This document shows positions 6,518 through 36,036 of a stretch of 61,705 bases of DNA, one piece after another. Location: contig DYNA01000004.1 in NCBI GenBank assembly GCA_020721325.1, positions 1 to 61,705 on the forward strand, in the 5' to 3' direction. Source of the DNA: Paludibacter propionicigenes. GTDB lineage: Bacteria > Bacteroidota > Bacteroidia > Bacteroidales > JAIFNL01. The translations under genes and the position numbers were made by a program. A model generated the notes under the pieces. The model ran no database searches, was not told the origin of the DNA, and saw only the letters and a program-made list of their open reading frames with translations. Position 1 is the stretch's first letter; each line of letters starts with the position of its first letter.

Positions 6518-6568
6518 AAAAATACCTTTTTACTTTTTCTTTAATATTTAAAAAAATATTTTTATAAA

Positions 6569-7819
6569 ATGAAAATTTTAGTTATAGGAAATGGTGCAAG
6601 AGAACATGCAATTATCTGGAAATTAGCCCAAAGTCCAAAGGCAAAAAAGATATTTTGCGCTCCCGGAAATGCAGGAACTTCGATTCTGGCTGAAAATGTT
6701 AATATTGGCGTTGAAGATATTGATAAACTTTTGGTTTTTGCGCAAAATAATGAAATCGATTTGACTATTGTAGGACCTGAAGTTTCTCTTGTAGCCGGAA
6801 TTGGCAATAAATTTAGAGCCTGCGGGAAAAAAATTTTTGGACCCAATCTTGATGGAGCAATTTTAGAAGGTAGTAAAATTTACTCGAAAAATTTTATGAA
6901 AAAATACCAGATTCCAACCGCTGCTTATCGAGCTTACGATGATTTGGAACTTGCCAAAAATGGTATTAATGAATTTTCATTTCCTATTGTGTTAAAAGCT
7001 GACGGATTGGCAGCCGGAAAAGGTGTTTTGATTTGTGAAAATAAACAACAAGCCGAATTGGCTTTAATGGATTTAATGAAACATCAAAAATTTGGAAGTG
7101 CTGGAAATCAAATTGTTATAGAAGAATTTTTAGAAGGTACCGAAGCTTCATTGCTCTGTTTTGTGAATGGAAAAAGTATTATTCCTATGGAAAGTGCGCG
7201 TGATTATAAGCGAGTATTTGATAACGATGAAGGCTTAAATACCGGTGGAATGGGCTGTTTTTCACCCAATTCAATTTTTTCTGACAATAATGTTAACGAA
7301 ATTCAAACTCAAATTTTAGATAAAACGATGAATGGTCTTTTATCCGAAAACATTGATTTTAGAGGAATTTTGTTCATTGGTTTAATGTTCACAAGCTTAG
7401 GAATCAAGGTTTTAGAGTACAATGTACGATTTGGAGACCCTGAAACGGAAGTAGTATTGCCGCGGTTAGAATCTGATTTTGTGGAGGTTATAGAAAAAAC
7501 AATTGATGGAACTTTAACAATCAATGATTTGAAATGGACAGACAAAATGGCAGTAACTGTAATTGCCGCTTCGGGCGGATATCCCGAAAAATATGAAAAG
7601 GGTTTTGAAATATTTGGATTAGACGCTGTAAATGAAGATATTATGATATTTCACGCCGGAACAGATCTTCAAAATAACAAAATAGTTACCAATGGTGGTA
7701 GAGTTCTTGCAGTAACCGCTTTGGGTGATTCTCTTGAGCAAGCGCGGCAAAAAGTTTATCAAAATATTGAAAAATTGCATTTTAAGGGAATATTTTATCG
7801 TAAAGACATAACTAAATAG
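6569..7819 (+). CDS. purD: Phosphoribosylamine--glycine ligase
   Basis: MKILVIGNGAREHAI, KADGLAAGKGV, ATP-grasp core and C-terminal GGRVLAVTALG. Confidence 0.93.
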   Translation: MKILVIGNGAREHAIIWKLAQSPKAKKIFCAPGNAGTSILAENVNIGVEDIDKLLVFAQNNEIDLTIVGPEVSLVAGIGNKFRACGKKIFGPNLDGAILEGSKIYSKNFMKKYQIPTAAYRAYDDLELAKNGINEFSFPIVLKADGLAAGKGVLICENKQQAELALMDLMKHQKFGSAGNQIVIEEFLEGTEASLLCFVNGKSIIPMESARDYKRVFDNDEGLNTGGMGCFSPNSIFSDNNVNEIQTQILDKTMNGLLSENIDFRGILFIGLMFTSLGIKVLEYNVRFGDPETEVVLPRLESDFVEVIEKTIDGTLTINDLKWTDKMAVTVIAASGGYPEKYEKGFEIFGLDAVNEDIMIFHAGTDLQNNKIVTNGGRVLAVTALGDSLEQARQKVYQNIEKLHFKGIFYRKDITK

Positions 7820-7847
7820 ATAAGGATAAATAAAAGTTTTTTGGTAC

Positions 7848-7883
7848 AAAGCCTTGTCATATATAATATGCAAGGCTTTTTTA
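7848..7883 (+). terminator. Terminator-like hairpin after purD
   Basis: aaagccttg (7848-7856) pairs with caaggcttt (7871-7879), followed by a T run. The loop is rather long at about 14 nt. Confidence 0.45.
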
Positions 7884-7996
7884 TTATTTTTACAAAACTT
7901 AAAATTTATTTTTTCGTATAAAAGAAAAAACTTTTATATAATTTTTTATCATTTCTTTTAAAAAATAATAGTAAAATAACTTTTGAAAAAAAAACT

Positions 7997-10405
7997 ATGA
8001 TTTTAAACGATTTTATACAAAAACTTAAAGTTTTAACAGATGAAAACTTTACTGACAAAGAAAAAGCCTTATTAGACAAGGCTTTGCAATTAATGTGCAT
8101 TGTTTATGAAAAAATTGAAGCCAATGATAAAGAAAAATATTTAGATAAGCTTTACGACTTGATAATCATTGTGTTAAAAGAATTGCACTTGAGTTACGAA
8201 TCTCTTATTGCTGTTATTTTATATCAAGTCAAAAAATTTGAACCTTTAACCACTGAATTTCTTGAAAATCAATACAATAAAAGTATTTCACTTATTATAG
8301 ATGGAATTTGGAAAATTAACAATATTAAAGTTCAACGAATTACGGAAGAAAATGTGAGCGTGGAAACCAAAAAAGGGGACTTGAAACGCAAAGTTTTAAG
8401 AGAAAAAGAGCGCGTAGCCGTACAAACTGAGAATTATATTACACTTTTACTCACTCTTGCCGACGATGTGCGCTCGATTTTGGTAAAATTAAGCTTGGTT
8501 TTATTCGACATGCGCAATATGAACGACTATTCGGAGGAGATTCAAGTAAAAATTGCGACCGAAACCTCTGTTATTTATGCACCAATTGCTCATAGACTCG
8601 GACTTTATGCCATAAAAACCGAACTTGAAGAACTTTCGATGAAAAAATTGCATAACGAAATGTATAATTTTATCAAAGAAAAATTAAATGAAAATAAAGA
8701 AAATCGCGAAAAATTTATTGACGATTTTATAACTCCAATTAAAAAACATTTTGCATCTAAAGGTTTAAAATTCAGCATAAAAGGACGTCCAAAATCAATT
8801 TATTCCATTTGGAATAAAATGAAAAAGCAAAATACAACATTTGAAAAAATTTACGACCTTTTCGCCATTCGCATTATTGTTAATGAACCTTATTTTGAAA
8901 ATGCAAATTTTATAAGAGATGAATTATCAAAGAGTTACACCGATTTACTTGCATTAAAAGACGATAATTTTGATAAGAAAAAGCAGTTAAAAACATTTAT
9001 TGCACAAAAAGAAAAAGAATTAGAGGACGAAATAAAATTAGCTAAACAAAAAGAAAAAAAAGATTGTTGGAATATTTATTCCGAATTTAGCAATTGGTAT
9101 GAGTTGAATCCCAACAGATTACGTGATTGGATAACCAATCCCAAAGAGACCGGATACGAATCGTTGCATACTACGGTTGCAGTTCCCAATGCCGAACAAA
9201 AGTGGGTTGAAGTTCAAATTCGTACACAAAGAATGGACGAAGTTGCCGAAAAAGGGCAGGCAGCACACTGGAAATACAAAAGTGCAAATAGTAAATCAAA
9301 TGCCGATAATTGGGCTGAGAAAATTCGCACAATGCTTGAAAATTTAGACGATAATTTAACCGAAAAATTTTCTACATCAAAAGCCGAATTATATCAAGAT
9401 GTCCTTTTTATTTTTACGCCAAAAGGCGATTTGAAAAAAATGAAAAATAAATCGACTTTACTCGATTTTGCTTATGCAATTCACTCAAACATAGGCGATA
9501 AGTGCGTGGGAGGCGAAGTAAACGGTAAACACGTTTCTATAAAATACAAATTAAAAAATGGCGATAGAATCAATATAAAAACTTCGCCCAATCAAAAACC
9601 TACCCCCGATTGGCTCAATATAGCTTACACTCGAAGCGCACAAAAACGAATACAACTTGCTCTTAATGAGACCAAATACAAAGATGCCGCTGCCGGAAAA
9701 GATATGTTGATGTATAAATTTAAACAATTGAAACTCGATTTTCAAGATGATACCTTATTTAAAATCTGTAATGAGCTGAATTTAAAGAAAATAGTTGATT
9801 TATACCAAGCCGTTGGCGAAGGAAAAATTGAAATAACGCAAATAAAAGAGCTATTAGACAAAATAGCTGAAAATGACAAATTTACAAACCAGCGAACCCA
9901 CCAAAAAATTCAAGACAATAAATATGAACAGCGCGGTGTTTCGCACGAAGAGGACGTTTCGCACGAATATCTTTTGATTGGCGATAGCGTAAAAGGTTTG
10001 AATTACGATTTGGCTCAATGCTGTAAACCGGTTCCGGGCGATACAATTTTTGGTTTTGTTACCATTGGCAAAGGTACTAAAATTCATAAAGTTAGCTGCC
10101 CAAATGCTGCCCAAATGATGTCGCGTTTTCCTTACAGAGTGGTGAAAGCACAATGGAATACCAAAAATTCCGTTTATGATTATATGGGCGATTTAATTAT
10201 TACCGGTATAAATTCGGTCGGAATAGTCGCAAATATTACAAGTTTGATAAAAAAAGAACCTCATTTAAATTTGCATTCCATTAATGTTGATGCCAAAGAT
10301 GGAATGTTTAAAGGAAAATTAACTTTATTTGCAAAAAATAAAAAAGAATTTGAAAAATTCTCGAAAATTTTAAGAACCGTTAAAGGTGTTTTGAATGTTC
10401 AGTAA
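7997..10405 (+). CDS. relA: RelA/SpoT homologue (RSH) (p)ppGpp synthetase with a degenerate HD domain, plus TGS and ACT domains
   Basis: Synthetase block GRPKSIYSIWNKMKKQ...YDLFAIRIIV...GYESLHTTV...VEVQIRTQRMDEVAEKGQAAHWKYK. TGS block (FTPKGDLKKM...LDFAYAIHSNIGDKC) and an ACT-like C-terminus. At the position of the hydrolase HD dyad the protein reads YQ (AVILYQV, codons 8222-8227). Confidence 0.85.
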   Translation: MILNDFIQKLKVLTDENFTDKEKALLDKALQLMCIVYEKIEANDKEKYLDKLYDLIIIVLKELHLSYESLIAVILYQVKKFEPLTTEFLENQYNKSISLIIDGIWKINNIKVQRITEENVSVETKKGDLKRKVLREKERVAVQTENYITLLLTLADDVRSILVKLSLVLFDMRNMNDYSEEIQVKIATETSVIYAPIAHRLGLYAIKTELEELSMKKLHNEMYNFIKEKLNENKENREKFIDDFITPIKKHFASKGLKFSIKGRPKSIYSIWNKMKKQNTTFEKIYDLFAIRIIVNEPYFENANFIRDELSKSYTDLLALKDDNFDKKKQLKTFIAQKEKELEDEIKLAKQKEKKDCWNIYSEFSNWYELNPNRLRDWITNPKETGYESLHTTVAVPNAEQKWVEVQIRTQRMDEVAEKGQAAHWKYKSANSKSNADNWAEKIRTMLENLDDNLTEKFSTSKAELYQDVLFIFTPKGDLKKMKNKSTLLDFAYAIHSNIGDKCVGGEVNGKHVSIKYKLKNGDRINIKTSPNQKPTPDWLNIAYTRSAQKRIQLALNETKYKDAAAGKDMLMYKFKQLKLDFQDDTLFKICNELNLKKIVDLYQAVGEGKIEITQIKELLDKIAENDKFTNQRTHQKIQDNKYEQRGVSHEEDVSHEYLLIGDSVKGLNYDLAQCCKPVPGDTIFGFVTIGKGTKIHKVSCPNAAQMMSRFPYRVVKAQWNTKNSVYDYMGDLIITGINSVGIVANITSLIKKEPHLNLHSINVDAKDGMFKGKLTLFAKNKKEFEKFSKILRTVKGVLNVQ

Positions 10406-19835: not shown

Positions 19836-20789
19836 ATTAAATATTAATCGAATAAAATTATGGTCTTATTCATTGATTTTAAATACGATAGAGATAAAAT
19901 CAGAGTTTGTTTCTTTTGTCAAAAATACAAATAAAATAGTAGTACGTTTGAATATTTTTATTTTTTTAAGAAAAAAGAAATCAACAAGATTTGTTCAAAA
20001 AAATATTCGGCTTCATTTTCAATGATTTAAAAAAAATAGCAAAAAAATACTCATGTTGATAACTTTTTTTTTGACAATTAGAATTTGTTTATTTAAGCTA
20101 TTTTTACTTTTTTTTTGTTAAAAATCTCATTTTAAGTAATATAAAAAAATGATTTTTTCTTAATTGATTAGTTTAGAAAAGGTTAAAAATTTTCTGAAAT
20201 TGACTTGAGTAAAGATATTGATATATAGGTAATTATATAAATTTTACTTTTTTTATTTTTTGTTGAAAAGATTTTTTTTTGTTTTAAAAAATGCTTTAGT
20301 TAAAAAATAAATCTCTTTTTTTTGCTATTTATTTTGATAGCCGAAAAAAGCTTAAATTTCAAAATGTTTTGAAAAAAGTAAATTTCAAAATGAAAAGTTT
20401 AAATGGTTTTTGTATCTAAAATTTAGACTTTTAGAGTCCTTTTTCGATACATTATTTAACTTTTTTTTATATAATAATTGGGTATTTTTTTTTTGCTAAA
20501 TGCAACTTTCAATCTTAAATTAATTTTAAGCGAAAATAAATTATTTAAAAAAAAAATGATTTTGCTAAATGCTTAAATAACAAAAATTTAATGGTTAATA
20601 ATTTTGTTAATAAAAGCGGTAAATTACAATATTTCAATGATTTAAAGGTATATTTTTTGTAAATTAAACTAAATTATTGATAGTAATATGAATACAAAAA
20701 AAATATGTTTTTCTTTAAAAAAAATTTTTTTTTTAGGAATTTTAATTTAATATTTGTTACAAGAAAAATGCAAAAAAATTTATTTAACA
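19836..20789. other. Candidate chromosomal replication origin (oriC) region upstream of dnaA
   Basis: Non-coding AT-rich spacer of about 0.95 kb directly upstream of dnaA. One near-consensus DnaA box, tgttgataa, lies at about 20053 (consensus tgtggataa). Several internal direct repeats are present: tttcaatgatttaaa x2, aaatttcaaaatg x2 and ttttgctaaatgc x2. No perfect DnaA boxes were seen. Confidence 0.4.
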
Positions 20790-22241
20790 ATGGAAGAAAA
20801 GAGTAAAATCATGGTGGAACATGTAGTTGTTTGGAATAGGTGTTTAGAGATTATAAAAGATAATATCCCTTCGGTAAGCTTTAAAACTTGGTTTCTTCCT
20901 ATTAAACCATTGAAACTTACCAATAAAGTATTAACTATTCAAGTACCCAGTCCTTTTTTTTATGAGTACTTAGAGGAGCAATATATTGATATTCTGCGTT
21001 CTACGCTCAAGAAAGAATTGGGAATAGGTGCGAAATTGGAATATAATGTTGTTATGGATAAGGAACGTACTGATAAACAGTTATATACGGTAGCTTATCC
21101 TGAAAAAAGTAAATCGGTGCCTGAAAATAAACCGTTTTCAATGTCGATAGCGGCGAGTGCTGATAAAAGTATTCGCAATCCCTTTGTAATTCCGGGTTTG
21201 CAGAAGTTGCATGTGGACCCGCAATTGAATGCTGAATATACTTTCAACAATTTTATTGAAGGTGAATGCAATCGTTTGGTGCGCAGTGCCGGAATTGCCG
21301 TTTCGAGTAAGCCCGGAGGCACAGCTTTTAATCCGCTTTTTATTTACGGAAATTCGGGTTTGGGTAAAACTCATTTGGCGCAAGCCATTGGTATTCAAGT
21401 GAAAGAGCAGTATCCTCAAAAAATTGTTCTTTATGTTTCTTCCAACAAATTTATCACGCAATACACCGATTCTATTCGTAAAAACAATTTGAATGATTTC
21501 ATTCATTTTTATCAAATGATTGATGTTTTGATTATTGACGATGTTCAGGAATTTGCAGGTAAGGATAAAACTCAGAATACGTTCTTCCACATTTTCAATC
21601 ACTTACAGCAGTCGGGCAAACAATTGATTTTAACTTCCGATAAGCCTCCGGTAGAATTGAAAGGCATGAATCAAAGGCTCTTGTCGCGCTTTAAATGGGG
21701 GCTGGCTGCTGAGCTTTCTAACCCCGATTATCTTACTCGATTGGCTATTTTGCGACACAAAATTTACAAGGAAGGTTTGAGCATTCCGGAAGAAGTGGTT
21801 GAATTTATTGCCACACACGTAAAAAATAACGTTCGTGAACTTGAAGGTACTCTCATTTCGCTTTTAGCGCAATCTACCTTGAATAAAAAAGAAATTACCC
21901 TTGAATTGGCTAAAGAATTGATAAATAAAATTGTTGTCAATACTAAAAAAATACTTTCAATTGATGAAATTCAAAAAATTGTTTGCGACCATTTTAATTT
22001 GAATGTAAATGTTTTGCAATCCAAATCGCGTAAGCGTGAAATTGTACAAGCGCGTCAAATGGCAATGTATTTTTCAAAAAATCTAACTAAATTTTCTTTG
22101 GCTGTTATCGGTTCAAAAATTGGCGGAAAAGACCATACAACCGTGTTACATGCCTACAAAACCATTACAAATATGTTGGAAACCGACAAAGTTTTTAAAA
22201 AAGACCTTTTTGAAATAGAACAGAAATTATTATTAGCATAA
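20790..22241 (+). CDS. dnaA: Chromosomal replication initiator protein DnaA
   Basis: Walker A GNSGLGKTHL, box VII/sensor regions and the C-terminal DNA-binding helix GGKDHTTVLHAYKTI. The start is ATG 20790 or ATG 20811; the track ORF starts at TTG 20754. Confidence 0.93.
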   Translation: MEEKSKIMVEHVVVWNRCLEIIKDNIPSVSFKTWFLPIKPLKLTNKVLTIQVPSPFFYEYLEEQYIDILRSTLKKELGIGAKLEYNVVMDKERTDKQLYTVAYPEKSKSVPENKPFSMSIAASADKSIRNPFVIPGLQKLHVDPQLNAEYTFNNFIEGECNRLVRSAGIAVSSKPGGTAFNPLFIYGNSGLGKTHLAQAIGIQVKEQYPQKIVLYVSSNKFITQYTDSIRKNNLNDFIHFYQMIDVLIIDDVQEFAGKDKTQNTFFHIFNHLQQSGKQLILTSDKPPVELKGMNQRLLSRFKWGLAAELSNPDYLTRLAILRHKIYKEGLSIPEEVVEFIATHVKNNVRELEGTLISLLAQSTLNKKEITLELAKELINKIVVNTKKILSIDEIQKIVCDHFNLNVNVLQSKSRKREIVQARQMAMYFSKNLTKFSLAVIGSKIGGKDHTTVLHAYKTITNMLETDKVFKKDLFEIEQKLLLA

Positions 22242-27114: not shown

Positions 27115-27603
27115 TTAACTTTTAAGATTTTGTGAAATAATTTGACACAAAAAAGTTAAATATTTTTCATCTATTTCATCAAAATCATTTAATTTATTGC
27201 TATCGACATCGAAAATGTACTTAACTTGCTGATTTACAAATATTGGCAAAACAATTTCCGATTTTGAATCAGAGCTGCAAGCTATATGTCCGGGAAATTC
27301 TTCAACATTCGGTACAATAATGGGGGCTTGGTTTTTCCAAGCCGTTCCACAGACGCCTTTTCCGTAAGCAATTCGTGTACAAGCAATTGGACCATGAAAA
27401 GGTGCTAACACCAATTGGTTTTCTTTCACTTCGTAAAAACCCACCCAAAAAAAATTCATGCCAAAATACAAAGCCGATGCAATGTTGGCTAAATTGGCAA
27501 TTACATCTTTTTCACCTTCAATAAGTGCCTCAATTTGAGGAAGTAAGGCTATGTACTTTTCTTCTTTTGATGCAGAAGCATCTATAAATAAATTTTCAGC
27601 CAT
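27115..27603 (-). CDS. msrC: GAF-domain protein, free methionine-(R)-sulfoxide reductase-like
   Basis: 162 aa. The WVGFYEV...LVLAPFHGPIACTRIAYGKGVCGTAW...GHIACSSDSKSEIVLPI pattern matches the YebR/fRMsr family. Confidence 0.7.
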   Translation of the reverse strand: MAENLFIDASASKEEKYIALLPQIEALIEGEKDVIANLANIASALYFGMNFFWVGFYEVKENQLVLAPFHGPIACTRIAYGKGVCGTAWKNQAPIIVPNVEEFPGHIACSSDSKSEIVLPIFVNQQVKYIFDVDSNKLNDFDEIDEKYLTFLCQIISQNLKS

Positions 27604-27608
27604 TTTTT

Positions 27609-28190
27609 TTATTTTGCTTGTGAAAAAAGCTCTTTGACAAGATATAAATTTCTTTCTATCAAGTGAATAGTTCCAAAAGATGGTCCCGAATAAAAGCGAA
27701 ATGTGATGGTGTCGCTATTTAAAATTTCATGGATTTGTTGCTTGTTGAGTTCGATTAAAAACTGCTCTTCTTTCCATGTTTCTGACGATATTCCCGTAAC
27801 TACATTTATGGTTGTACTATCGTTAATTTGCATGTTTTCAGTGTTTTCCACTGTTTTATGCCGTAATTTTATATCGCGTTTTTCAATGTATTTTTCATAT
27901 ATTTTATTATCCAAAATCATATAAAAAGTATCTAACAAAGCAAAACTTCCCGAAGAACGATGAATGGTCGTATAAATTTTATACGTTTCTTTTTGCTGCT
28001 TTTTTTCCAGTGCAAATGTAAACCGACCACTTAAAATATCAGTTATTTTTTCATCAGTACTTTCGTATATTTTAACATAAGCATTCTGGGTTTTTCGGTA
28101 TTCATCGTTTTGATATACAATAGTTTCCTTATATCCGCATGAATTTAGAAAAAATAAAATAATTAAAAGTAAAATACCTGTTTTTTTCAT
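27609..28190 (-). CDS. Lipoprotein, function unknown
   Basis: Signal peptide with lipobox FFLNSCG. No other motif recognised. Confidence 0.5.
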   Translation of the reverse strand: MKKTGILLLIILFFLNSCGYKETIVYQNDEYRKTQNAYVKIYESTDEKITDILSGRFTFALEKKQQKETYKIYTTIHRSSGSFALLDTFYMILDNKIYEKYIEKRDIKLRHKTVENTENMQINDSTTINVVTGISSETWKEEQFLIELNKQQIHEILNSDTITFRFYSGPSFGTIHLIERNLYLVKELFSQAK

Positions 28191-28196
28191 AAAAAA

Positions 28197-28700
28197 TTAT
28201 TCTTTAAAAATAGCATAATAAATTAAATCGATAATTTTTCCATTTTTAACAGCCGCTTTTTTCAAAACGGCTTCTTTAATGAAATTATTTTTTTCCAAAA
28301 CTTTGGTAGAAGCAATGTTAAAATCATATACTTTAGCATAAATTTTTATTACTTTTTCAAAAGTATCGAATGTATAGCTGATTATTTTACTAACTACCTC
28401 ACTCATAATGCCTTGTCCCCAATATTGCTCGCTTAACCAATAGCCCAATTCGGCTGTTATTTCGTAAATTCCTGTTTGTGGGTGAATAGAAATAACTCCA
28501 ACTGCCTCATTATTAACTACAATAGCAAATACTTTCAGCGGTTCTTCCGTTTGCTTGAGGGCGATAAAATCTACAGCATTTTGCAACAGATACGGATACG
28601 GAAATACATCGGTCAAATTATTTGCAATTTTCTGGTTATTAGCATGTTTGGCTAAAGAACCGGCATCGCTTTGTCGTAAACTTCTTAATTCAAATTTCAT
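28197..28700 (-). CDS. GNAT family N-acetyltransferase (RimJ/RimL-like)
   Basis: 167 aa. The ELGYWLSEQYWGQGIMSEVV acetyl-CoA binding block is typical of GNAT Acetyltransf_3-like proteins. Confidence 0.75.
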   Translation of the reverse strand: MKFELRSLRQSDAGSLAKHANNQKIANNLTDVFPYPYLLQNAVDFIALKQTEEPLKVFAIVVNNEAVGVISIHPQTGIYEITAELGYWLSEQYWGQGIMSEVVSKIISYTFDTFEKVIKIYAKVYDFNIASTKVLEKNNFIKEAVLKKAAVKNGKIIDLIYYAIFKE

Positions 28701-28720: not shown

Positions 28721-31700
28721 TTATTTTAATTCGGGAATAATAAATTTTTCTAAAAAACACATCCCTTCTAAAATTAACATAGAATGCTTATAATCAAATG
28801 GTTGTCCGGTTTTTGCTTGTTCGTTGGCTTTTTGCCATTCCGAATCATTTAGTATAAACGCTTTCAATTCGCGTGCAAGTTGAGCTTTTTTAGCTTCCAA
28901 TTGGGCGGCATCATTTTTTATTCCAGTAGAATTAGGACCAACAAAGCGTATAAAAATATCAAAAAATTTATTAAATTCTATAAATTTGTCCGGTATTCTA
29001 ATACCGAATTTCATATCTTTGAGATGCTCTATTTTTATTATATCGGAAGCTTTAAGTAATTGTTCTTCTCCATTTTGGGGTTGAAATACAAATCCGTTTT
29101 CGCCAAAAAGGTCTGAATTTTCGCGTACATCTGCCGATACGGTAACTTCTTGCGGAGCAGAAAGTCCTTTGGAAACTTCCGATTTATTGTCGCTACGAAT
29201 GCTATCTTTCTTTTCTAAATTGATGTGCTGGCTTCCTTCGCCAAATCCGGCTTTAAAGCATTGATTGTAATAGTTTCGGGCTTCGGTTTTTCCCGGAAAA
29301 ACATCAAGCCAATCAAAAATTCTTCCGCCTTTTCCGAAAGGTAAAAAATCGACCATTCTTACGTTTTGATATTCGTTTTCTTTCATGGCTTTTGCAATCA
29401 ACTGTCCGGAGTAAAACAAAAGTAAACCGGTAATATAAGCCGGTATCACAAACACTTCGGGCGTAAATTGCGCCAAAGAACTGTAAAAAGCTCTAAATTG
29501 CTCATCTTTTAACCGGTCGAGTATGGCATTCAGATAAAAAGGTGAAGTATTGGCTTTTTCTGTAATATCCTTAATATTAGCCACTTTAATGGGACATGCC
29601 GGACTTTCATGATACTTATAAATGGCATGTCTTACGGCATTTGAATCCTTGATTACTTCCGATAAAATTCCGGCAGCCATGCGAAGCGAACTTTGCTTAC
29701 TCAATTTATAAGCACGCGCTTTGCTATCCATTCCGAGAACCAAAATGTCTGAGGTTGAGCCACCTACGTCAATACCGAGCAAGATATTTTTTTCGTCCAA
29801 GCCAATGTTCGTTAAAGCGTAATTGCAAACCGCTTCGGCTTCGGTGCTGGGCTGGTAACTCACTTTAATTGAGTGCTTTTCGATGGGTACGTGCGAAAGT
29901 TCGTCGTACATAAGCTGATATTGTCTTACATCGAATTTTGTGAATGAACCCGGATATGACCAACGCAACTCATTGGCTAACACTTTATTAGCATACAAAT
30001 CGGCAACTGCCATAATCCAAACCGTTTTCAAATATGCTTTCTTTTTTTCTTTCCCTCTGGCATCGTTGAGCCATTTCATGCTGTGATGCAAAATTCCGGC
30101 ATTGGTCGTAATTGTGCGGTTGTCCATGCCGTGAATGACCAAATTATGCTCAAAAATAGGTACTCCACCTGCTATTTCTTCTTGTTCCATGCCGGTTGCA
30201 ACATATTGTGGCTTGTGGTCGTGAACCCACGATTTAATTTGCCCGTTGGCGGTATCTTCGTTTTGAAAAAATAAAAGTTCGTTGCGAACGGCTGTTTTTT
30301 CGCGAAAATGGTCTATAATTTCAGCACCAAGCAAAAAGATTCTTCTATTTTTGAACGGAATGGGTTCTACTTCGGAACGATTTGTACGTGAATAACTTAG
30401 ACAGGAATTGTTGCTTCCAAAATCTATTCCTATAACAGCCGTTTCAAAGTTCGTTTCATGCGATAAATCATAGATTTGTTGCCCGCCCATTGACTCGTCA
30501 TTTGGCTCTTTTACAATTAGATAGCCACAAATTCGGTCTTTTCCGCCTATCATAGCCCGAAGCTCTAAACCGGCAACCGGACGATTTGAACGAATAACTT
30601 CATACGGATGGTCTTCGCGCGTAGCCGTTGATACCGGATATTTTATCAAATGCTCAATTTTTAAATCGGGGTGATAGCCTTCGTAACCGCCATAAATTAA
30701 ATTTTCTTTATGGTCGAAAATGTAATTTCCTCCATCGTAACCATTTGATTGTGAGATATTTTTGTAAAAAGGGACAAATTTTATATCGCGTGAGTTTGAA
30801 GGATATTCGTTGTAAAAATAATATTGATTCCAATTGCGCGAAATAAAATTTGGCCACATAATTATGTTGCGTTGCACTCCGGTAAGCAGTTTAATTTCGT
30901 ATTCGCGCACTATGGGCGTTTGTTTTTTGCCATCGACTATCAAAAATAATTCCACAATGAGCTTAAAATCATTTACTTTGATGCTTGCGCGAAGTTCGTG
31001 TGAGTGTTCGAGCGAAGAATTGACCAACTCCCCTACTCTATTCTTAAACAAGCGTAAACCGTAGTTACTCAAGGGAATAGGAAAATACCACTTTTTATTT
31101 GCATTTTGGGGGTCGGTGCAAGTCATGTAATGAACGGCACTTGTTTCAAGTCGTTGTTCTTCACTTACTTGCGAAAGCGAAAAGATAAAATCGTCGTGCA
31201 TCAAAATTTTTTGCAAATCAACTTTTTGTCCGCCATTCGTTTCGTCAAAACTAAAATTTCCTTCGTTTAAAAACAAATCTTGCTTAATTCGGAAAAGTTG
31301 CGTAAATGGTTGCATAAATTCCAATTCTGCATCTAAAGCACCTTCGGTAACTAATTGAAAACCACGTGCTTTTATTTCAGAACTCCATTTTTGCACAAAC
31401 TCGAAAAGTGGAGTAAGTTTTAAATTCTCTTTGCCTTCTCTGTTTTGATTGATTTCTTTTTCAAATTCTGGTATTCTGTTTGCCAAATTATTTACCAGCA
31501 AATACAGTTTTTGCAATTGATTGTTATCAAAATTTCCAAATTCGAGCGGATTGTCAAAACGCCCGTTTCTAAACCACGGCACATCACCTTTTGCCGTAAA
31601 GGCACTGTAATCTATTCCGGTGAAAATCAAGGAGTAAGGTGAAGTTGCACCGATTAAAAGATTGTTGTAATAAATCAGTTGAATTTGGGGTTTGCTTTGC

Positions 31701-32155
31701 TTTTGTTCTTTCAAAACTTTTGGGTCGCACCACAAATCGGTATCTTCAAAGAGCATTCGCCCGAAAGCATTGGGAATATTATATAAACTGTCGAGTAAAC
31801 CCGGCGTAAATTCTATCGGTTTGCTTAAAACGATTCTGTCTGGGAAAAGTGCCAACAAAGCAATTAAGCCTTTCCACTCATTTACAATACTTTCATAAAA
31901 TTTTATTAAGCCCGAAGTATCAATATTGGCATCTTTTTGGGTGTATTTGAAGGCATAGCCAAAAACTTTTGCACGCGACCAGATGCTGGGCAAGCCCGAA
32001 ATCATATTGCTTAACACCTCAGCATCAACGTTTTCCACTAAATCGCCGGTGTTTATACCTTGAATATAAGGTGTAGCTTGCTCAAATAAATGCCAAGAAC
32101 CTTGAACGGCTTCTTTTTCGCCTACTGAACTGTTGATTAATAACGCTTTTGCCAT
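28721..32155 (-). CDS. Giant (1144 aa) protein: unrecognised N-terminal half plus a C-terminal Hsp70/actin-fold (ASKHA) ATPase-like domain
   Basis: Phosphate-1-like VIGIDFGSNNSCLSY (res 574-588; GIDFGSNNS at 30404-30430). Phosphate-2-like LLGIDVGGSTSDILVLG (res 792-808, about 29732-29782). Adenosine-like VDFLPFGKGGRIF (FLPFGKGGRIF at 29315-29347). Compare DnaK IGIDLGTTNSCVAV, DLGGGTFD and LVGGxTRxP, which have similar spacing. No TM helix or signal peptide. Confidence 0.6.
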   Translation of the reverse strand: MAKALLINSSVGEKEAVQGSWHLFEQATPYIQGINTGDLVENVDAEVLSNMISGLPSIWSRAKVFGYAFKYTQKDANIDTSGLIKFYESIVNEWKGLIALLALFPDRIVLSKPIEFTPGLLDSLYNIPNAFGRMLFEDTDLWCDPKVLKEQKQSKPQIQLIYYNNLLIGATSPYSLIFTGIDYSAFTAKGDVPWFRNGRFDNPLEFGNFDNNQLQKLYLLVNNLANRIPEFEKEINQNREGKENLKLTPLFEFVQKWSSEIKARGFQLVTEGALDAELEFMQPFTQLFRIKQDLFLNEGNFSFDETNGGQKVDLQKILMHDDFIFSLSQVSEEQRLETSAVHYMTCTDPQNANKKWYFPIPLSNYGLRLFKNRVGELVNSSLEHSHELRASIKVNDFKLIVELFLIVDGKKQTPIVREYEIKLLTGVQRNIIMWPNFISRNWNQYYFYNEYPSNSRDIKFVPFYKNISQSNGYDGGNYIFDHKENLIYGGYEGYHPDLKIEHLIKYPVSTATREDHPYEVIRSNRPVAGLELRAMIGGKDRICGYLIVKEPNDESMGGQQIYDLSHETNFETAVIGIDFGSNNSCLSYSRTNRSEVEPIPFKNRRIFLLGAEIIDHFREKTAVRNELLFFQNEDTANGQIKSWVHDHKPQYVATGMEQEEIAGGVPIFEHNLVIHGMDNRTITTNAGILHHSMKWLNDARGKEKKKAYLKTVWIMAVADLYANKVLANELRWSYPGSFTKFDVRQYQLMYDELSHVPIEKHSIKVSYQPSTEAEAVCNYALTNIGLDEKNILLGIDVGGSTSDILVLGMDSKARAYKLSKQSSLRMAAGILSEVIKDSNAVRHAIYKYHESPACPIKVANIKDITEKANTSPFYLNAILDRLKDEQFRAFYSSLAQFTPEVFVIPAYITGLLLFYSGQLIAKAMKENEYQNVRMVDFLPFGKGGRIFDWLDVFPGKTEARNYYNQCFKAGFGEGSQHINLEKKDSIRSDNKSEVSKGLSAPQEVTVSADVRENSDLFGENGFVFQPQNGEEQLLKASDIIKIEHLKDMKFGIRIPDKFIEFNKFFDIFIRFVGPNSTGIKNDAAQLEAKKAQLARELKAFILNDSEWQKANEQAKTGQPFDYKHSMLILEGMCFLEKFIIPELK

Positions 32156-32275
32156 TATTTTATATCTTTTTGTAAAATAAAATCTATTTTTTTATAAAAA
32201 AATTATGTAAACTATTTTTTTGAAAATACAATTAAAAAAAAGTAATTTCTGATTTAAAATCCCTTTTTATTTATT

Positions 32276-33865
32276 TTAATTTTCAAATCCGTAAAGCTTT
32301 ACCAAAGTTTTATACATTCGTTTAATTAATTTTTCCGATTTATTATTGATGCCTTCTTCGTCTGAAAGCTTAATAAATTCTGACTTAAATTCATCGTAAG
32401 CATTGCTGAAAATACCGGTTTTATATTCATGTTTTTCGTCATTTGGGCGATAAATCTGCTTGTTGTAAGCAAATTTATTAAGTTCTCTTTCATTGCCAAT
32501 GCTAAATAATTCAGCATTAAAAAGAAAATTATCTTGTCCGTTTGCAGACCTGTAAACTTGTCTTAACCAGCCATCTATAAGTTCTTTTTCTTTGTCTAAC
32601 GCAAAGTGAAACATGGCAAAATATTTTTTCAAGGCATTTACTTCTTCCATTAAAATGTCGTCGTAGCCGATAATTTTATTTTTTTCGAGGGTTTTGGCTT
32701 GTGCTGCTGCAAAAAAGTCCGTCTTTTCTGGGTAAACCAAAAAGGAAAGGGCTATTAACATTCCAAATTTTTTCATAAATTCTCCGACCAAATGCGAATG
32801 GACAAAGTCTTTAAAATCCAATTTTCCGTTTTCGTTCAATGCACGGAAGTAATATTGTACTTCGCGTTTATCTTCTTTAATTTCAGATAGTTCTGCTTTT
32901 TTTGTATGGAAAAAATCGTAAGCTGCAAAAGCCGTTAGCAATTCAATGTAATGAGCATCATTTTTTTGTTTTACGCCTCCGGTAACGGTTTCTTTGCCTT
33001 CTTGCTTGGTTTGAAAGTCGTTAGAAGGCGTGCCGAGCATGTAAAATTTTTGATATGTACTTTTTACGGTTTGGTCTTCGTTGTAAAACATCATGGCAAC
33101 TTGCGAATTGAGTGCAAAATTTTTAGAATTTGCAACTACCAGTTGATTAGCACGTTGCGTCTCATCGGGCGGTGGAAATTTAAAATAACTCGAAAGCAAA
33201 GTCGCTCCAAAAAAAGCTTTTGAAAGCGATTTTCCGGGTACAATGATGTTCATTGCGGCATTGAATGCCTTGGGAATGATAGGAATAGAAGATGCGCCGG
33301 TGCCTCCAAAAACCGAACCCAACACAAAAACACGCGCCGTTTGCTGTTCGCCGGCATCGAAAATGGACTGGATAAATTGCGATAAACTGCCTTTGGGATT
33401 GTCTTTAACTTCTTGTAAAATAGAGTGATACATTAGCAATGACCCCAAATGTGTTTGTGAACGATAGCCATGTTTCAAATCAAATTCGCGCACATTGTCG
33501 GTCAAAAGTAAGCGTGCCAAATCTTTTTCTTCTTTTGAAGCATAGGAATACGCCGAAAGGCTTGTAAATTTGCCGTTTTTACCAATGTTTGAGTAATCGG
33601 GGCAAAATTCAAAAAAATTGATTTTGGCACTGAAAAATGTATTTTCGAGTGCGTAATGTGTTTTGTTGTAGCCTTTTACCTTTAAATAAGTATCTTTTAC
33701 CAATTCTTTAAGGCGATTAAAATTTCCGTTTTCAAGGTCGGTATCCAATGCCAATATGTTGATTTCTGTTTTATCGTACATGCCCATGGCGCAGGTATGC
33801 ACAAATGCCTCCAACGCACGCATTCCCGTGCCTCCAATGCCTATTACAAATAGTTTATCGTTCAT
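32276..33865 (-). CDS. FtsZ/tubulin-like GTPase-domain protein (divergent, 529 aa)
   Basis: FVIGIGGTGMRALEAF (GIGGTGMR at 33818-33841) compares with FtsZ VIGVGGGGGNAV. INILALDTD (res 35-43) compares with FtsZ NTD. VFVLGSVFGGTGASSIPIIP (GGTGAS res 187-192, 33290-33307) compares with the tubulin signature [SAG]GGTG[SA]G and FtsZ GMGGGTGTGAAPV. The C-terminal half is helical with no recognisable motif. Confidence 0.55.
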   Translation of the reverse strand: MNDKLFVIGIGGTGMRALEAFVHTCAMGMYDKTEINILALDTDLENGNFNRLKELVKDTYLKVKGYNKTHYALENTFFSAKINFFEFCPDYSNIGKNGKFTSLSAYSYASKEEKDLARLLLTDNVREFDLKHGYRSQTHLGSLLMYHSILQEVKDNPKGSLSQFIQSIFDAGEQQTARVFVLGSVFGGTGASSIPIIPKAFNAAMNIIVPGKSLSKAFFGATLLSSYFKFPPPDETQRANQLVVANSKNFALNSQVAMMFYNEDQTVKSTYQKFYMLGTPSNDFQTKQEGKETVTGGVKQKNDAHYIELLTAFAAYDFFHTKKAELSEIKEDKREVQYYFRALNENGKLDFKDFVHSHLVGEFMKKFGMLIALSFLVYPEKTDFFAAAQAKTLEKNKIIGYDDILMEEVNALKKYFAMFHFALDKEKELIDGWLRQVYRSANGQDNFLFNAELFSIGNERELNKFAYNKQIYRPNDEKHEYKTGIFSNAYDEFKSEFIKLSDEEGINNKSEKLIKRMYKTLVKLYGFEN

Positions 33866-34015
33866 TTTAGTTTATATTGAATTGATGTTTTTTCATAATT
33901 AATGTATAAAAAAATATACTTTGTATTTTCATAAAAAATCTTTTTGTAAAGAAAAAAAAAATATAACAAACCAGCAAGAAATAAATGAAAAATTTCAAAT
34001 AAATTCTTCAAAAAA

Positions 34016-35407
34016 TTAAAGGGCAAAAGCATAATAAGCTTTTACGCCGTCAGCGTAAATTCCTTCTATAAAAATAGTGGTTTCTTTTTTGTTTAAAATT
34101 TCTTCCAAATCGGAAATGGTTTGAATTTCGGTTTTATTTACCGAAAGGATAATAAAACCTTCTTTTACATTGGCATTCAATAGTTTGCCGGCTTTCAATT
34201 CGGTTATTTTTAAACCGCCGACTATGTTTAAATGTTTTTTCTCTTTTTCGGTAACTTCTTGGTATTTAGCACCTAATCGTTCTAAAAGGGCGTTTTCTAA
34301 AAAAATAGAACCTTGTAAATTGGTCAATGTAACTTTCATATTTAAAAGCGAATCGCCTCGTTTGATTTTCAAATGTACTATATCGCCCGGTCGGTGCCGC
34401 GCCAATTGTTCGTATAACTCGTTGGAAGAGTTCAATTTAACTTCTTCAAAAGCCAGTAAAATATCTTTTACTTGCAGTCCGGCTTTGTCGGCAGCACCTC
34501 TGTTTTCAATTTCCGAAATGTAAATTCCTTCTATTCGCTTAATTCCTTCTTCGCGGGCAAATTTGGCATCTATGTCGTTGATTATTAAGCCTAAAACGGC
34601 TCTTTGCACTTTGCCGAACTCGCGCAAATCGCTTGTAATTTTGCGGACAATATTAATGGGAACTGCAAAAGAATAACCAACATAACTTCCTGTCCGTGAG
34701 GCTATTGCAGTGTTTATCCCTATTAAATTTCCTTCGGTATCGATTAATGCGCCGCCGCTGTTGCCCGGATTGATAGCGGCATCGGTTTGTAAGAAAGCTT
34801 CTACTGCCGAGCGTTTATCTATAATGTTGATACTTCGCGATTTAGCACTAATTATTCCGGCAGTAACCGTTGAACCCAAGCTGTACGGATTTCCGATAGC
34901 CAAAACCCAATCGCCAATTTCGAGGTTATCGGAATTTCCAAATTCGGCATAAGGTAAATTATTGGAATTGATTTTGAGTAAAGCCAAATCGGTTGTGGGG
35001 TCAAGTCCAACGATTCTTGCTTTAAAACTGCGCTTATCTATCAGATTGACTTGTATTTGACTTGATTTTTCAACCACATGAAAATTGGTAACAATGTACC
35101 CGTCGGGGCTAATGATTACGCCCGAACCTTCGGCTTCCATTGGAAAAGGCATCTGTTCATCAAAAAGAATGTCGTATAACGAATTTCCGGCACCCTCGTA
35201 GTGTGTGCGAATATGCACAACGGAATTAATGGATTTTTTTACTGAATTTCTAAAATTTGGTAAATCGTTTAACCCTAAGTTATGAACATTTTGAAGTTCT
35301 ATTTTATTCTCTTTCAATGCAATAACCGATTTATTTTCAAAAAAATGAAAATAAATGAATAATGCGAAAAAGCCTCCTAATGCCGAAATAAATAAATTTT
35401 TTAACAT
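34016..35407 (-). CDS. htrA: Do/HtrA-family periplasmic serine endoprotease with two PDZ domains
   Basis: N-terminal anchor/signal, catalytic triad contexts TNFHVV, DLALLKI and GNSGGAL, followed by two PDZ-like regions. Confidence 0.9.
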   Translation of the reverse strand: MLKNLFISALGGFFALFIYFHFFENKSVIALKENKIELQNVHNLGLNDLPNFRNSVKKSINSVVHIRTHYEGAGNSLYDILFDEQMPFPMEAEGSGVIISPDGYIVTNFHVVEKSSQIQVNLIDKRSFKARIVGLDPTTDLALLKINSNNLPYAEFGNSDNLEIGDWVLAIGNPYSLGSTVTAGIISAKSRSINIIDKRSAVEAFLQTDAAINPGNSGGALIDTEGNLIGINTAIASRTGSYVGYSFAVPINIVRKITSDLREFGKVQRAVLGLIINDIDAKFAREEGIKRIEGIYISEIENRGAADKAGLQVKDILLAFEEVKLNSSNELYEQLARHRPGDIVHLKIKRGDSLLNMKVTLTNLQGSIFLENALLERLGAKYQEVTEKEKKHLNIVGGLKITELKAGKLLNANVKEGFIILSVNKTEIQTISDLEEILNKKETTIFIEGIYADGVKAYYAFAL

Positions 35408-35690
35408 AATATAAAGTGAAAGAAATGTATTTTGAAGTTGTTTTTATTCATTCATTTTTTTTTTAAGTCTTAGCTTGGTCAGTTTATTTTGCTTTGTTTT
35501 CTATTTTTTTGTGCAAAATAAACAAATCAGCCTTAAAGTTAATAATTTGTCAATTTTTTAATTTTTTAAAATTTAATGAACAAATATAACAAGCTTTTTT
35601 TTATTAGATATTTGTTTTTCAATAATTTATCAAAAATATTTGACAAATTATCGAAACAACAATAATTACAAAAATACAAAAACTTTGTTT

Positions 35691-35882
35691 AAAAAAGTTT
35701 TTTTCAAAAAAAGTTTTCAAAAAAAGTTTTCAAAAAAAGTTTTCCAAAAAAAGTTTTCCAAAAAAAGTTTTCCAAAAAAAGTTTTCCAAAAAAGTTTTCA
35801 AAAAAAAGTTTTCCAAAGAAGTTTTTCCAAAAAAGTTTTCCAAAAAAGTTTTTCAAAAAAAGTTTTCCAAAAAAAGTTTTGA
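35691..35882. repeat. Tandem minisatellite, about 14 copies of a 12-15-bp unit (consensus AAAAAAAGTTTTCC)
   Basis: Read directly from the sequence: aaaaaaagttttc / aaaaaaagttttcc units recur head-to-tail with 1-2-nt length variants and one internal A>G variant (aaagaagtttttcc). It is intergenic, lying between the stop of the 812-aa gene (36037) and the htrA start (35407). Confidence 0.9.
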
Positions 35883-36036
35883 ATTTTTTTTTAATAAAGT
35901 GAGTGTATGATAAAAAAATATTTTTGACGCAAATATGTAAAGATAAAACGGAAGTACGAAAAAAGAAAGTCAGTAAAATGCAAAATTGCAAGCGTGATTT
36001 CTTTTTTTTGATTTTTTAATGCCGAATTTTTAAATA

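Follow-up and report, generated by a model that had tools for sequence, protein, structure and literature searches.

A predicted tubulin-like GTPase and a giant Hsp70-like ATPase form the conserved core of a gene cluster in Bacteroidota

Cytomotive and chaperone engines come in two great families, the nucleoside triphosphatases (NTPases) of tubulin fold and those of actin/Hsp70 fold. At ftsA-ftsZ a tubulin-fold gene and an ASKHA-fold gene stand adjacent, and FtsA binds the FtsZ polymer and anchors it to the membrane; to our knowledge, this is the sole well-understood bacterial partnership of the two folds. Here we describe another such pair, found in a 61,705-nucleotide stretch of DNA from Paludibacter propionicigenes (contig DYNA01000004.1, assembly GCA_020721325.1; the whole stretch is called the window below). 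It consists of two genes from the window's list of open reading frames (ORFs), one for a 529-amino-acid (aa) predicted Tubulin_2-like GTPase of the tubulin/FtsZ superfamily (32276-33865, minus strand) and one for a giant, 1144-aa Hsp70-like ATPase (28721-32155, minus strand). An earlier reading of the sequence alone, the original prediction, had placed two minus-strand ORFs of these lengths 120 bp apart, with coordinates that proved exact; it had also held that no characterised system pairs the two folds in one locus, which ftsA-ftsZ contradicts. The pair is a second tubulin/ASKHA-fold partnership, unrelated to the first and far more divergent, and conserved across a phylum. As a divergent tubulin-superfamily multi-gene system it is of a known kind; what is new is an undescribed giant Hsp70-like partner family, a pair that is usually the centre of a larger cluster, and a reduced, two-NTPase form of that cluster in the window lineage.

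FtsZ-FtsA, with its adjacent and co-directional genes for a tubulin-fold GTPase and an ASKHA-fold ATPase, offers the best mechanistic analogy, but the relation is one of analogy and not of membership. There, ftsA precedes ftsZ, whereas here the tubulin-like gene comes first; the window protein has no Pfam match to FtsZ_C and no recognised T7 loop, and scores 11 bits on the NCBIfam ftsZ equivalog, whose cut-off is 295; and the partner here is a 1144-aa, Hsp70-like protein, with no dcw genes nearby. Another point of comparison is FtsZl1, whose systems are predicted to remodel membranes and have never been experimentally characterised (PMC2875224). Like FtsZl1, the protein studied here is a divergent GTPase that aligns only in the N-terminal nucleotide-binding elements, up to about H5, finds its best-matching Pfam model in Tubulin_2, and belongs to multi-gene operons in which membrane-associated proteins of unknown function abound (PMC2875224). 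FtsZl1 itself is about 900-1130 aa long, with a long coiled coil and a helical C-domain, whereas the window protein has 529 aa, a compact model and no long coiled coil, and we detected none of the FtsZl1 partners (vWA, that is, von Willebrand factor A, divergent GTPase and OmpA-like proteins, and kinases; PMC2875224). The main text of that study mentions no Hsp70-like or ASKHA partner, and its lists hold no Prevotella, Porphyromonas or Chitinophaga entries. Its Additional file 5 does list, for Bacteroides caccae ATCC 43185, the three genes BACCAC_02056-02058, encoding a 535-aa hypothetical protein, a 913-aa FtsZl1 and a 1152-aa 'cysteine protease'; the sizes of the outer two resemble those of our pair.

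The only published framework we found that has tubulin and HSP70 in one NTP-dependent class is that of the DO-GTPase/GAP1-N2 conflict systems, for which multimeric assemblies have been proposed (Kaur, Burroughs, Iyer and Aravind 2020, PMC7159879). In that work, however, the tubulin and HSP70 themes are explicitly non-overlapping and limited to Firmicutes and Actinobacteria, the core consists of paired TRAFAC GTPases with GAP1 and FNIII, and HSP70 comes with GrpE or DnaJ (PMC7159879), none of which is present here: the scanned neighbours and the partner families F2-F7 described below have no Pfam match to GTPase-family, vWA or FNIII domains, the absence of GAP1, for which no public model exists, being judged by gene content. 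In the searchable literature, which leaves subscription-only publications outside, we found no description of the pair and no experimental work on either family; nor did Pfam, NCBIfam, PADLOC or PHROGs place it in a characterised named system, as the original prediction had anticipated.

That the two genes belong together is seen first in their distribution. One genome per species was scanned, yielding 27 loci with the large protein in Bacteroidales, Cytophagales, Sphingobacteriales and Chitinophaga; the Bacteroidales carriers include Prevotellaceae, a Segatella copri genome, Porphyromonas, Tannerella, Muribaculaceae and Paludibacteraceae. Across these loci the large protein is 26-89% identical to the window copy, and 26 of the 27 have the tubulin-like gene upstream of the large one and on the same strand, directly adjacent to it in 25. 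The pair is likewise adjacent in at least nine of the ten IMG/VR contigs that carry the large gene. This adjacency is far above chance, and the gene-neighbourhood association on which the original prediction depended is near-universal in other genomes. The identities of the two proteins to their window copies are also tightly correlated (r = 0.993 across the 27 loci). Compared with the closest relative (locus L004), the ratio of nonsynonymous to synonymous substitution rates (dN/dS) is 0.042 for the tubulin-like and 0.054 for the large gene, with dS near saturation, against 0.13 for the flanking htrA gene and 0.27 for the flanking GNAT gene; the corresponding protein identities are 91% and 87%, against 70% and 58%. 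The low ratios relative to the flanks indicate that both genes are strongly constrained in a lineage where they stand alone. The two genes are thus a co-inherited, co-evolving functional pair.

Exceptions are few. Locus L023 has the large gene with no tubulin-like gene within 10 kb, the ORF upstream, tried as a divergent tubulin-like protein, being a class II aminoacyl-tRNA synthetase; in locus L046 a tubulin-like gene has no large gene beside it. Other genes have entered repeatedly between the two (in L019, L053 and L055), yet the pair is kept together: a family-2 glycosyltransferase gene and a 138-aa ORF lie between them at L019:7733-9222, and a 214-aa ORF with no match at L053:9282-9926. 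In one IMG/VR contig (L032/L050; IMGVR_UViG_3300045988_078240, 36165 bp) the tubulin-like gene occupies about 300-1800 and the large gene, which has the same orientation, about 31.8-35.2 kb, so that they are adjacent, in reversed order, only if the contig is circular.

What marks the smaller protein as a relative of tubulin? Its T1-type glycine-rich loop, GIGGTG, occupies aa 9-14 (33824-33841, minus strand), with I10, G11, G12, T13 and G14 invariant in 42 sequences; a DTD motif stands at aa 41; and the T4-type signature loop GGTGAS, a variant of GGGTG[ST]G, occupies aa 187-192 (33290-33307, minus strand), with G187 to S192 invariant in 42 sequences, each motif lying where it had been predicted. 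Over the pair as a whole, alignments of 42 and 48 homologs show the glycine-rich cores of six motifs to be invariant or conserved in at least 90% of the sequences. The AlphaFold2 (AF2) model built from the family alignment (predicted local distance difference test, pLDDT, 84.8; predicted template-modelling score, pTM, 0.89) shows alternating strands and helices, with a Rossmann-like, putative GTP-binding domain over about aa 1-320 and a family-specific, mainly helical C-terminal region. GIGGTG follows model strand 3-10, inside a local match to PF00091 (Tubulin) at aa 5-45, and GGTGAS follows strand 176-182, inside a local match to Tubulin_2 at aa 158-195. The window protein taken whole falls below the Pfam thresholds (Tubulin_2, 23.8 bits for a cut-off of 27; PF00091, 17 bits for a cut-off of 33). 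Among 42 relatives scanned singly, 35 match Tubulin_2 and 24 match PF00091 (E<=1e-3), no family besides these two is matched, and the relative on a Gloeothece plasmid reaches 40.8 bits on Tubulin_2, over the cut-off. Searches of PDB sequences with single sequences and family profiles gave no match for the family, which has more than 1639 homologs.

Structure comparison points the same way, though weakly. In the PDB the top Foldseek match of the model is beta-tubulin (E 6.7e-3, probability 0.97), and many tubulins, gamma-tubulin and OdinTubulin are among the other matches (probability 0.7-0.96); in the BFVD set of viral models the top match is a phage tubulin (E 2.9e-4, probability 1.0), with phage FtsZ, a tubulin-like protein and PhuZ lower in the list amid unrelated folds. 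From motifs, profiles and model together, we assign the 529-aa protein to the tubulin/FtsZ superfamily as a predicted Tubulin_2-like member. In being a divergent prokaryotic tubulin-fold GTPase whose best viral match is a phage tubulin it recalls TubZ and PhuZ; it differs from them in its C-terminal region, its chromosomal context and the lack of a TubR-like adaptor or centromere.

The second protein is, by model and motifs, an Hsp70-type ASKHA ATPase in its C-terminal half. The nucleotide-binding domain spans about aa 570-1000 (29156-30448, minus strand). Within it lie the phosphate-1 motif IGIDFGSNNSCLSY at aa 575-588 (30392-30433, minus strand; G576, D578, F579, G580, S581 and N583 invariant), the phosphate-2 motif GIDVGGSTSD at aa 794-803 (29747-29776, minus strand; G794, D796, G798, G799 and T801 invariant) and the adenosine motif FGKGGRIF at aa 940-947 (29315-29338, minus strand; G941, K942, G943 and G944 invariant), again at the positions claimed for them. 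The first two are 219 residues apart and the last two 146; in DnaK the interval between the two phosphate motifs is about 30 residues shorter. An invariant E772, in the sequence TEAEAV, precedes phosphate-2 and is the putative counterpart of the Hsp70 catalytic glutamate; together, D578, E772, D796, G798-G799, T801 and G941-G944 make up a complete Hsp70-like nucleotide site. The AF2 model (pLDDT 85.5, pTM 0.74) bears out the predicted ASKHA fold: all 50 PDB matches listed by Foldseek are Hsp70-family chains, mainly isolated nucleotide-binding domains and including DnaK, Hsc70, Hsp72, BiP and Ssz1 (E 1.6e-8 to 1.3e-7, probability 1.0, template-modelling (TM) score about 0.5 on isolated domains), with none from actin, MreB, ParM or FtsA.

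The HMMER family profile aligns both phosphate motifs to Ssz1, weakly and not significantly; PDB sequence searches returned only insignificant Hsp70, actin and SYG-2 matches, the actin-family chain at 12.6 bits; and the large homolog from Gloeothece matches FtsA below threshold (18.5 bits for a cut-off of 31.8). Pfam (PF00012 included), NCBIfam, PADLOC and PHROGs gave no match to the large protein, which thus has no actin-like Pfam match to relate it to MreB, ParM or FtsA. With Hsp70/DnaK it shares the two-lobed fold, the three nucleotide motifs and the conserved glutamate, but its ATPase domain is C-terminal, behind about 570 other residues, no sequence test recognised a substrate-binding beta-sandwich or lid, and no J-domain or GrpE co-chaperone is encoded among the window neighbours or the cluster families. 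Given these absences, we regard it as a protein with an Hsp70-like ATPase domain, not as an Hsp70.

The N-terminal region, aa 1-569 (30449-32155, minus strand), is modelled as helical over about aa 27-264 and then beta-rich over about aa 294-548. The original prediction could assign it to no family, and neither Pfam nor PDB sequence searches, which gave no significant match, could do so. It contains a motif of its own, WPNFxSxxWxxYY at aa 434-446, with W434, P435, F437, W442 and Y445 invariant, which the Gloeothece homolog has in common with it. The C-terminal aa 1001-1144 (28721-29155, minus strand), about 145 residues, are mostly helical in the model. Neither protein of the pair has a predicted transmembrane helix, as had been claimed: the top 19-residue Kyte-Doolittle score is 1.6, against 2.9 for a transmembrane control, and in the tubulin-like protein the segment with that score is the S4/T4 nucleotide-binding strand. 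The large family comprises at least 1573 cluster representatives at 50% identity in a profile search, 295 of them at E<=1e-30, and its 82 word-indexed homologs are all named 'hypothetical'.

The original prediction spoke of a two-NTPase module. This describes the window, but not most genomes, in which the pair is the core of a larger cluster with lipoprotein, transmembrane and tetratricopeptide repeat (TPR) proteins. Clustering of ORFs from the surrounding loci revealed a fixed order in most genomes, F3, F2, tubulin-like gene, Hsp70-like gene and F4, often continued by F5, F6 and F7, to give five to eight or so genes; F2 is present in 22 of 29 loci, F3 in 21 and F4 in 17. F3 (about 450-520 aa) is a predicted lipoprotein, with an invariant cysteine in a lipobox-like position and a hydrophobic leader ahead of it in the members read; it has no Pfam or PDB profile match, and the 120 listed of its at least 686 homologs carry no Pfam domain or informative name. 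F2 (about 130 aa) has three hydrophobic segments, presumably transmembrane, and a conserved basic KRR-like motif. F4 (about 800 aa) ends in a C-terminal TPR array (E 2e-20) behind an N-terminal half of no assigned family. F5 (192 aa) has no Pfam or PDB profile match and weakly matches a PHROG of unknown function (E 5e-5); F6 (about 180-260 aa) is a transmembrane protein with a CW_7 repeat, a cell-wall-binding repeat of phage lysins; and F7 (about 190 aa) has a lipoprotein signal. The pair is thereby shown to be the invariant cytoplasmic core of an undescribed gene cluster widespread in Bacteroidota. At 90% identity, F3 homologs form some clusters of 900-2090 member sequences (P0389, P0384), the largest of which shares 94% identity with F3 from a Segatella copri genome, and clusters of this size indicate that the full system is very abundant in sequenced metagenomes.

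Several more specific assignments were tried and did not hold up. F3 had suggested a vWA lipoprotein by eye (D-x-S and TDGE-like motifs, L011:6608-7969), a view unsupported by Pfam, PDB profiles or the Pfam domains of its listed homologs; F5 had suggested a TerD-like protein (W...DLDL...H.GDN, L011:15834-16415), with no Pfam or PDB profile support, and both readings survive only as leads; and the N-terminal half of F4 is no second Hsp70-like domain (hhalign probability 0.2%). By hhalign, the ORFs that directly precede the tubulin-like gene (493 aa in L004, 477 aa in L007 and 513 aa in L030) are not F3 (0.1% for that of L004), a 633-aa protein downstream in L053 was rejected as a divergent F4, and the small transmembrane proteins upstream in L030 and L031 have no detectable homology to F2 and are at most analogous to it.

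Homologs of F2-F7 are found nowhere in the 61.7-kb window, nor near the pair in its closest relatives, L004, L003 and L007. Somewhat more distant relatives keep them: L053, 66% identical, has F3 (hhalign 100%) and, at the F2 position, a 126-aa gene matched by position; L006 and L005 have F3 and F2 upstream of the pair; and L001 has F2. The two-gene form of the window would therefore be a reduced cluster, or else its partners are encoded outside the window. From the locus itself, the window lineage has lost F2, F3 and F4 and has kept the two NTPases under strong purifying selection.

In some human-gut Bacteroidales, what appears to be a switch precedes the cluster. Between a tyrosine recombinase gene and F3, an inverted repeat of 28-29 nucleotides flanks 145-158 bp, an arrangement conserved among three loci (L033:4381-4593, L037:4377-4590 and L040:4130-4332); the repeat is absent upstream of F3 in twelve recombinase-less loci, and absent in the window. 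The inner segment carries TAnnTTTG, which we take to be the Bacteroides -7 promoter consensus, directed away from the cluster in L033 and L040. The exact junction expected after inversion occurs in five human-gut metagenome contigs and one IMG/VR contig (flipped copies, L056-L061), and the originally observed orientation in five IMG/VR contigs; in alignment the flanks are collinear and a segment of about 185 bp is inverted at 95-97% identity. Occurrence in both orientations makes this a genuine invertible DNA segment directly upstream of the cluster and implies phase-variable expression. We infer that the adjacent recombinase is the invertase of the segment and that the flipped state is the ON state. 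Invertible promoters of Bacteroidales classically govern surface molecules and phage susceptibility (PMC7641763, PMC4611039, 10.1101/521070).

What might such a system do? By analogy with FtsZ-FtsA, the tubulin-like protein would bind GTP through its T1 and T4 loops and self-assemble as an oligomer or filament, and the Hsp70-like protein, through closure of its two lobes driven by ATP, would bind, nucleate, anchor or disassemble this structure, with its N-terminal region of about 570 residues serving as an adaptor; where present, the transmembrane protein, the lipoproteins and the TPR protein may link this cytoplasmic engine to the cell envelope. We give about even chances to a reading of the system, built on this analogy, in which it is an assembly or remodelling machine associated with the envelope and has as its output some property of the surface or the envelope. 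An output of that kind would fit the invertible, promoter-like switch ahead of the cluster in gut Bacteroidales. A fuller proposal, that the Hsp70-fold ATPase directly controls assembly of the tubulin-fold GTPase, that this is coupled, in most carriers, to the envelope through the transmembrane, lipoprotein and TPR subunits and switched by DNA inversion in gut Bacteroidales, and that it constitutes either a new cytoskeletal or envelope-remodelling apparatus or a new class of phage defence, is one that we put forward only tentatively.

Several observations weigh against the envelope-machine reading. The tubulin-like model resembles tubulins weakly (TM-scores 0.2-0.4), with Rossmann enzymes interspersed among the matches, so that the fold evidence is weak by itself; together with the profile evidence it excludes an unrelated Rossmann family, the alternative that the original prediction had named for this protein. 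A conserved acidic T7 synergy residue was not found after the putative H7 (aa 306-319) in the alignment of 42 sequences, only L326 being at least 90% conserved within aa 320-337, and this makes polymerisation-coupled GTP hydrolysis a conjecture; Makarova and Koonin met the same difficulty with FtsZl1 (PMC2875224). The large protein resembles Hsp70 and not the filament-forming actins, and it lacks an identifiable substrate-binding domain and J-protein or GrpE partners, so that a chaperone role and an FtsA-like anchoring role are both conjectural. The window has no membrane component of the cluster, and the envelope link may therefore fail to hold for this genome, unless the partners are encoded outside the window. 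Finally, plasmid-borne versions, a relaxase and recombinase neighbourhood, allelic replacement and a defence cassette at one locus favour a rival interpretation, in which the pair belongs to an NTP-dependent conflict or anti-phage system whose infection-triggered NTPase assembly contains the invader or kills the cell.

We consider this second interpretation unlikely, though it is the main rival. The original prediction had found no mobile-element genes, which is correct for the window and does not extend to its relatives, with their relaxase and recombinase genes, cyanobacterial plasmids and invertible switch. Cyanobacterial plasmids carry tubulin-like relatives of 24-28% identity, as does the second replicon (1.77 Mb) of Prevotella sp. 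oral taxon 299 F0039. Plasmid Cy782204 of Gloeothece verrucosa PCC 7822 (L031 7511-15794) has a distant five-gene version: a small polytopic membrane protein, a 511-aa tubulin-like protein, a homolog of the large protein with 1118 aa (hhalign 99.5%, E 6.6e-23, aa 420-1073) and two further proteins (415 and 528 aa) with weak coiled-coil-type matches. The tubulin-like protein matches Picosynechococcus/Synechococcus plasmids too (hits H2, H4-H6). Prevotella F0039 has a divergent tandem of 537 and 1158 aa, whose homology was tested for the tubulin-like member only; its layout is shared by the IMG/VR locus L052, in which a protein of about 510 aa and one of about 150 aa (polytopic and transmembrane in F0039) precede the tubulin-like and the giant protein, and the L052 version stands beside ParB-methylase genes.

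The gut Bacteroidales add a neighbourhood of their own. The large gene occurs on ten IMG/VR contigs, those mapped showing the cluster, and in seven of the ten the cluster directly follows a MobA/VirD2 relaxase gene, an ORF of 265 aa and the gene of a tyrosine recombinase that carries the domains Phage_int_SAM_5 and Arm-DNA-bind_5. Two of these loci, L033 and L040, have flanks of 68-84% DNA identity (73-84% on the relaxase/recombinase side, about 68% on the right) and recombinases of 86% protein identity; between the flanks (L033:4600-17000 and L040:4350-16000) the cluster shows no DNA similarity, the large proteins (1129 and 1301 aa) being 25-26% and the tubulin-like proteins 41% identical. 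Conserved flanks around a divergent cluster indicate that two divergent alleles share one slot, and the difference looks like allelic replacement at a fixed site, a pattern typical of diversifying selection. In locus L055, from Cytophagales, an insertion of 4.6 kb (5400-10000) separates the tubulin-like and Hsp70-like genes and carries genes for an NsnB/AriA/GajA-like ATPase (PADLOC, E 1e-46), for a PDDEXK_2 nuclease and for a Macro-domain protein, with GIY-YIG, PP2C, TPR+SIR2 and IS200 transposase genes nearby. The defence interpretation can also appeal to the apparently phase-variable expression, phase variation in Bacteroides being known to modulate phage susceptibility (10.1101/521070, PMC7641763), and to the thematic precedent of the vWA-, tubulin- and HSP70-containing systems of Kaur et al. 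(PMC7159879).

Much stands on the other side. No PADLOC-DB 2.0 model matches the pair, F2-F5 or F7, and a weak match of F6 (PD-T4-6, E 1.4e-3), like those of the Gloeothece downstream proteins, was treated as low-complexity or coiled-coil noise; no nuclease, protease, TIR or pore-forming effector domain is recognised in the cluster; and the cluster lacks the core of DO-GTPase and GAP1 on which the published systems are centred. The window copy lies about 6.5 kb from dnaA amid housekeeping genes and is more conserved than its neighbours. None of the 27 species loci, nor the window, has the gut relaxase or recombinase within 10 kb. Nothing in 50,697 phage records or 72,556 plasmid records matches the large protein, and the tubulin-like protein has no sequence-level match in the phage collection. 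The IMG/VR contigs, considered as proof of phage carriage, were set aside when PHROGs matched only the recombinase and one family of unknown function, as was tRNA-linked integration as a basis for the recombinase adjacency, there being no tRNA genes in nine loci or the window. The envelope and defence interpretations are not exclusive, because a change in the envelope can itself alter phage susceptibility.

Both folds are also used to position plasmid and phage DNA (PMC5322520, PMC3678025), and distant homologs are carried by Gloeothece and Picosynechococcus plasmids, so that one might see in the pair a DNA-segregation or maintenance module of a mobile element, comparable to TubZRC or ParMRC. 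We think this very improbable: no small DNA-binding adaptor gene or centromere-like repeat was identified beside the pair, the conserved partners are a lipoprotein, a transmembrane protein and a TPR protein, most loci, the window included, are chromosomal and without element genes, the phage and plasmid collections contain no match to the large protein, and its fold matches Hsp70 and not ParM or actin. The last alternative, a meaningless chance adjacency of a divergent GTPase and a divergent chaperone, to which the long spacer of the window, the unrelated genes inserted between the pair in L019, L053 and L055 and the solitary genes of L023 and L046 might lend some colour, is effectively refuted by synteny, order and strand being retained over several Bacteroidota orders and again on a cyanobacterial plasmid, with correlated divergence and with families of matching size (1573 large representatives and more than 1639 tubulin-like homologs).

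If the two proteins do form a nucleotide-driven complex, they would offer a new system for studying how tubulin-like polymers are regulated, and may account for a phenotype of dominant gut bacteria in the envelope or in the interaction with phages. The invertible segment would provide a natural ON/OFF handle and the two-gene form of the window a minimal system for reconstitution; and if the fuller proposal above is true, the window lineage would show that the two NTPases can act as a self-sufficient core.

In the window the two genes are separated by an AT-rich spacer of 120 bp (32156-32275, minus strand), longer than the roughly 3-90 bp of most other loci, in which a terminator scan found no terminator-like hairpin and an Rfam scan no match; they are probably co-transcribed. 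The region upstream (33866-34059, minus strand) consists of an AT-rich gap of 150 bp and a terminator-like hairpin (34023-34059) at the htrA end, which suggests that the pair starts its own transcription unit; it contains no inverted repeat and no invertible segment. A sigma-70 promoter scan is uninformative for Bacteroidota, an Rfam scan of the window from 27 to 37 kb found no RNA element, and the whole 61.7-kb window has no tRNA gene. The neighbours are chromosomal housekeeping genes, with HtrA upstream, a GNAT acetyltransferase, a small lipoprotein-like ORF and a GAF protein downstream, and DapA, CysH, a ClC channel, PurL and DnaA farther away; no mobile-element, dcw, mre or par genes are among them, in agreement with the original prediction.

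Some smaller features of the locus can be added. The dnaA gene lies at 20754-22241, about 6.5 kb from the pair, and this distance places the window probably close to the chromosomal replication origin. The GNAT gene (28197-28700) begins 20 bp past the stop of the large gene and is followed by further short-spaced genes (27609-28190 and 27115-27603); it may be co-transcribed with the pair, and since it is kept downstream only in L004, membership in the system is unlikely. L004 has an extra ORF, the 493-aa one rejected above as F3, between htrA and the tubulin-like gene (L004:6771-8252), which the window lacks (33866-34015). On the far side of htrA, in the intergenic region between it and a DUF5916/CBM9 gene, the window has a tandem array at 35700-35880 made of 13.3 copies of the 14-bp unit TTTTCCAAAAAAAG with 90% matches, and this array yields spurious repetitive ORFs on both strands (35640-35991).

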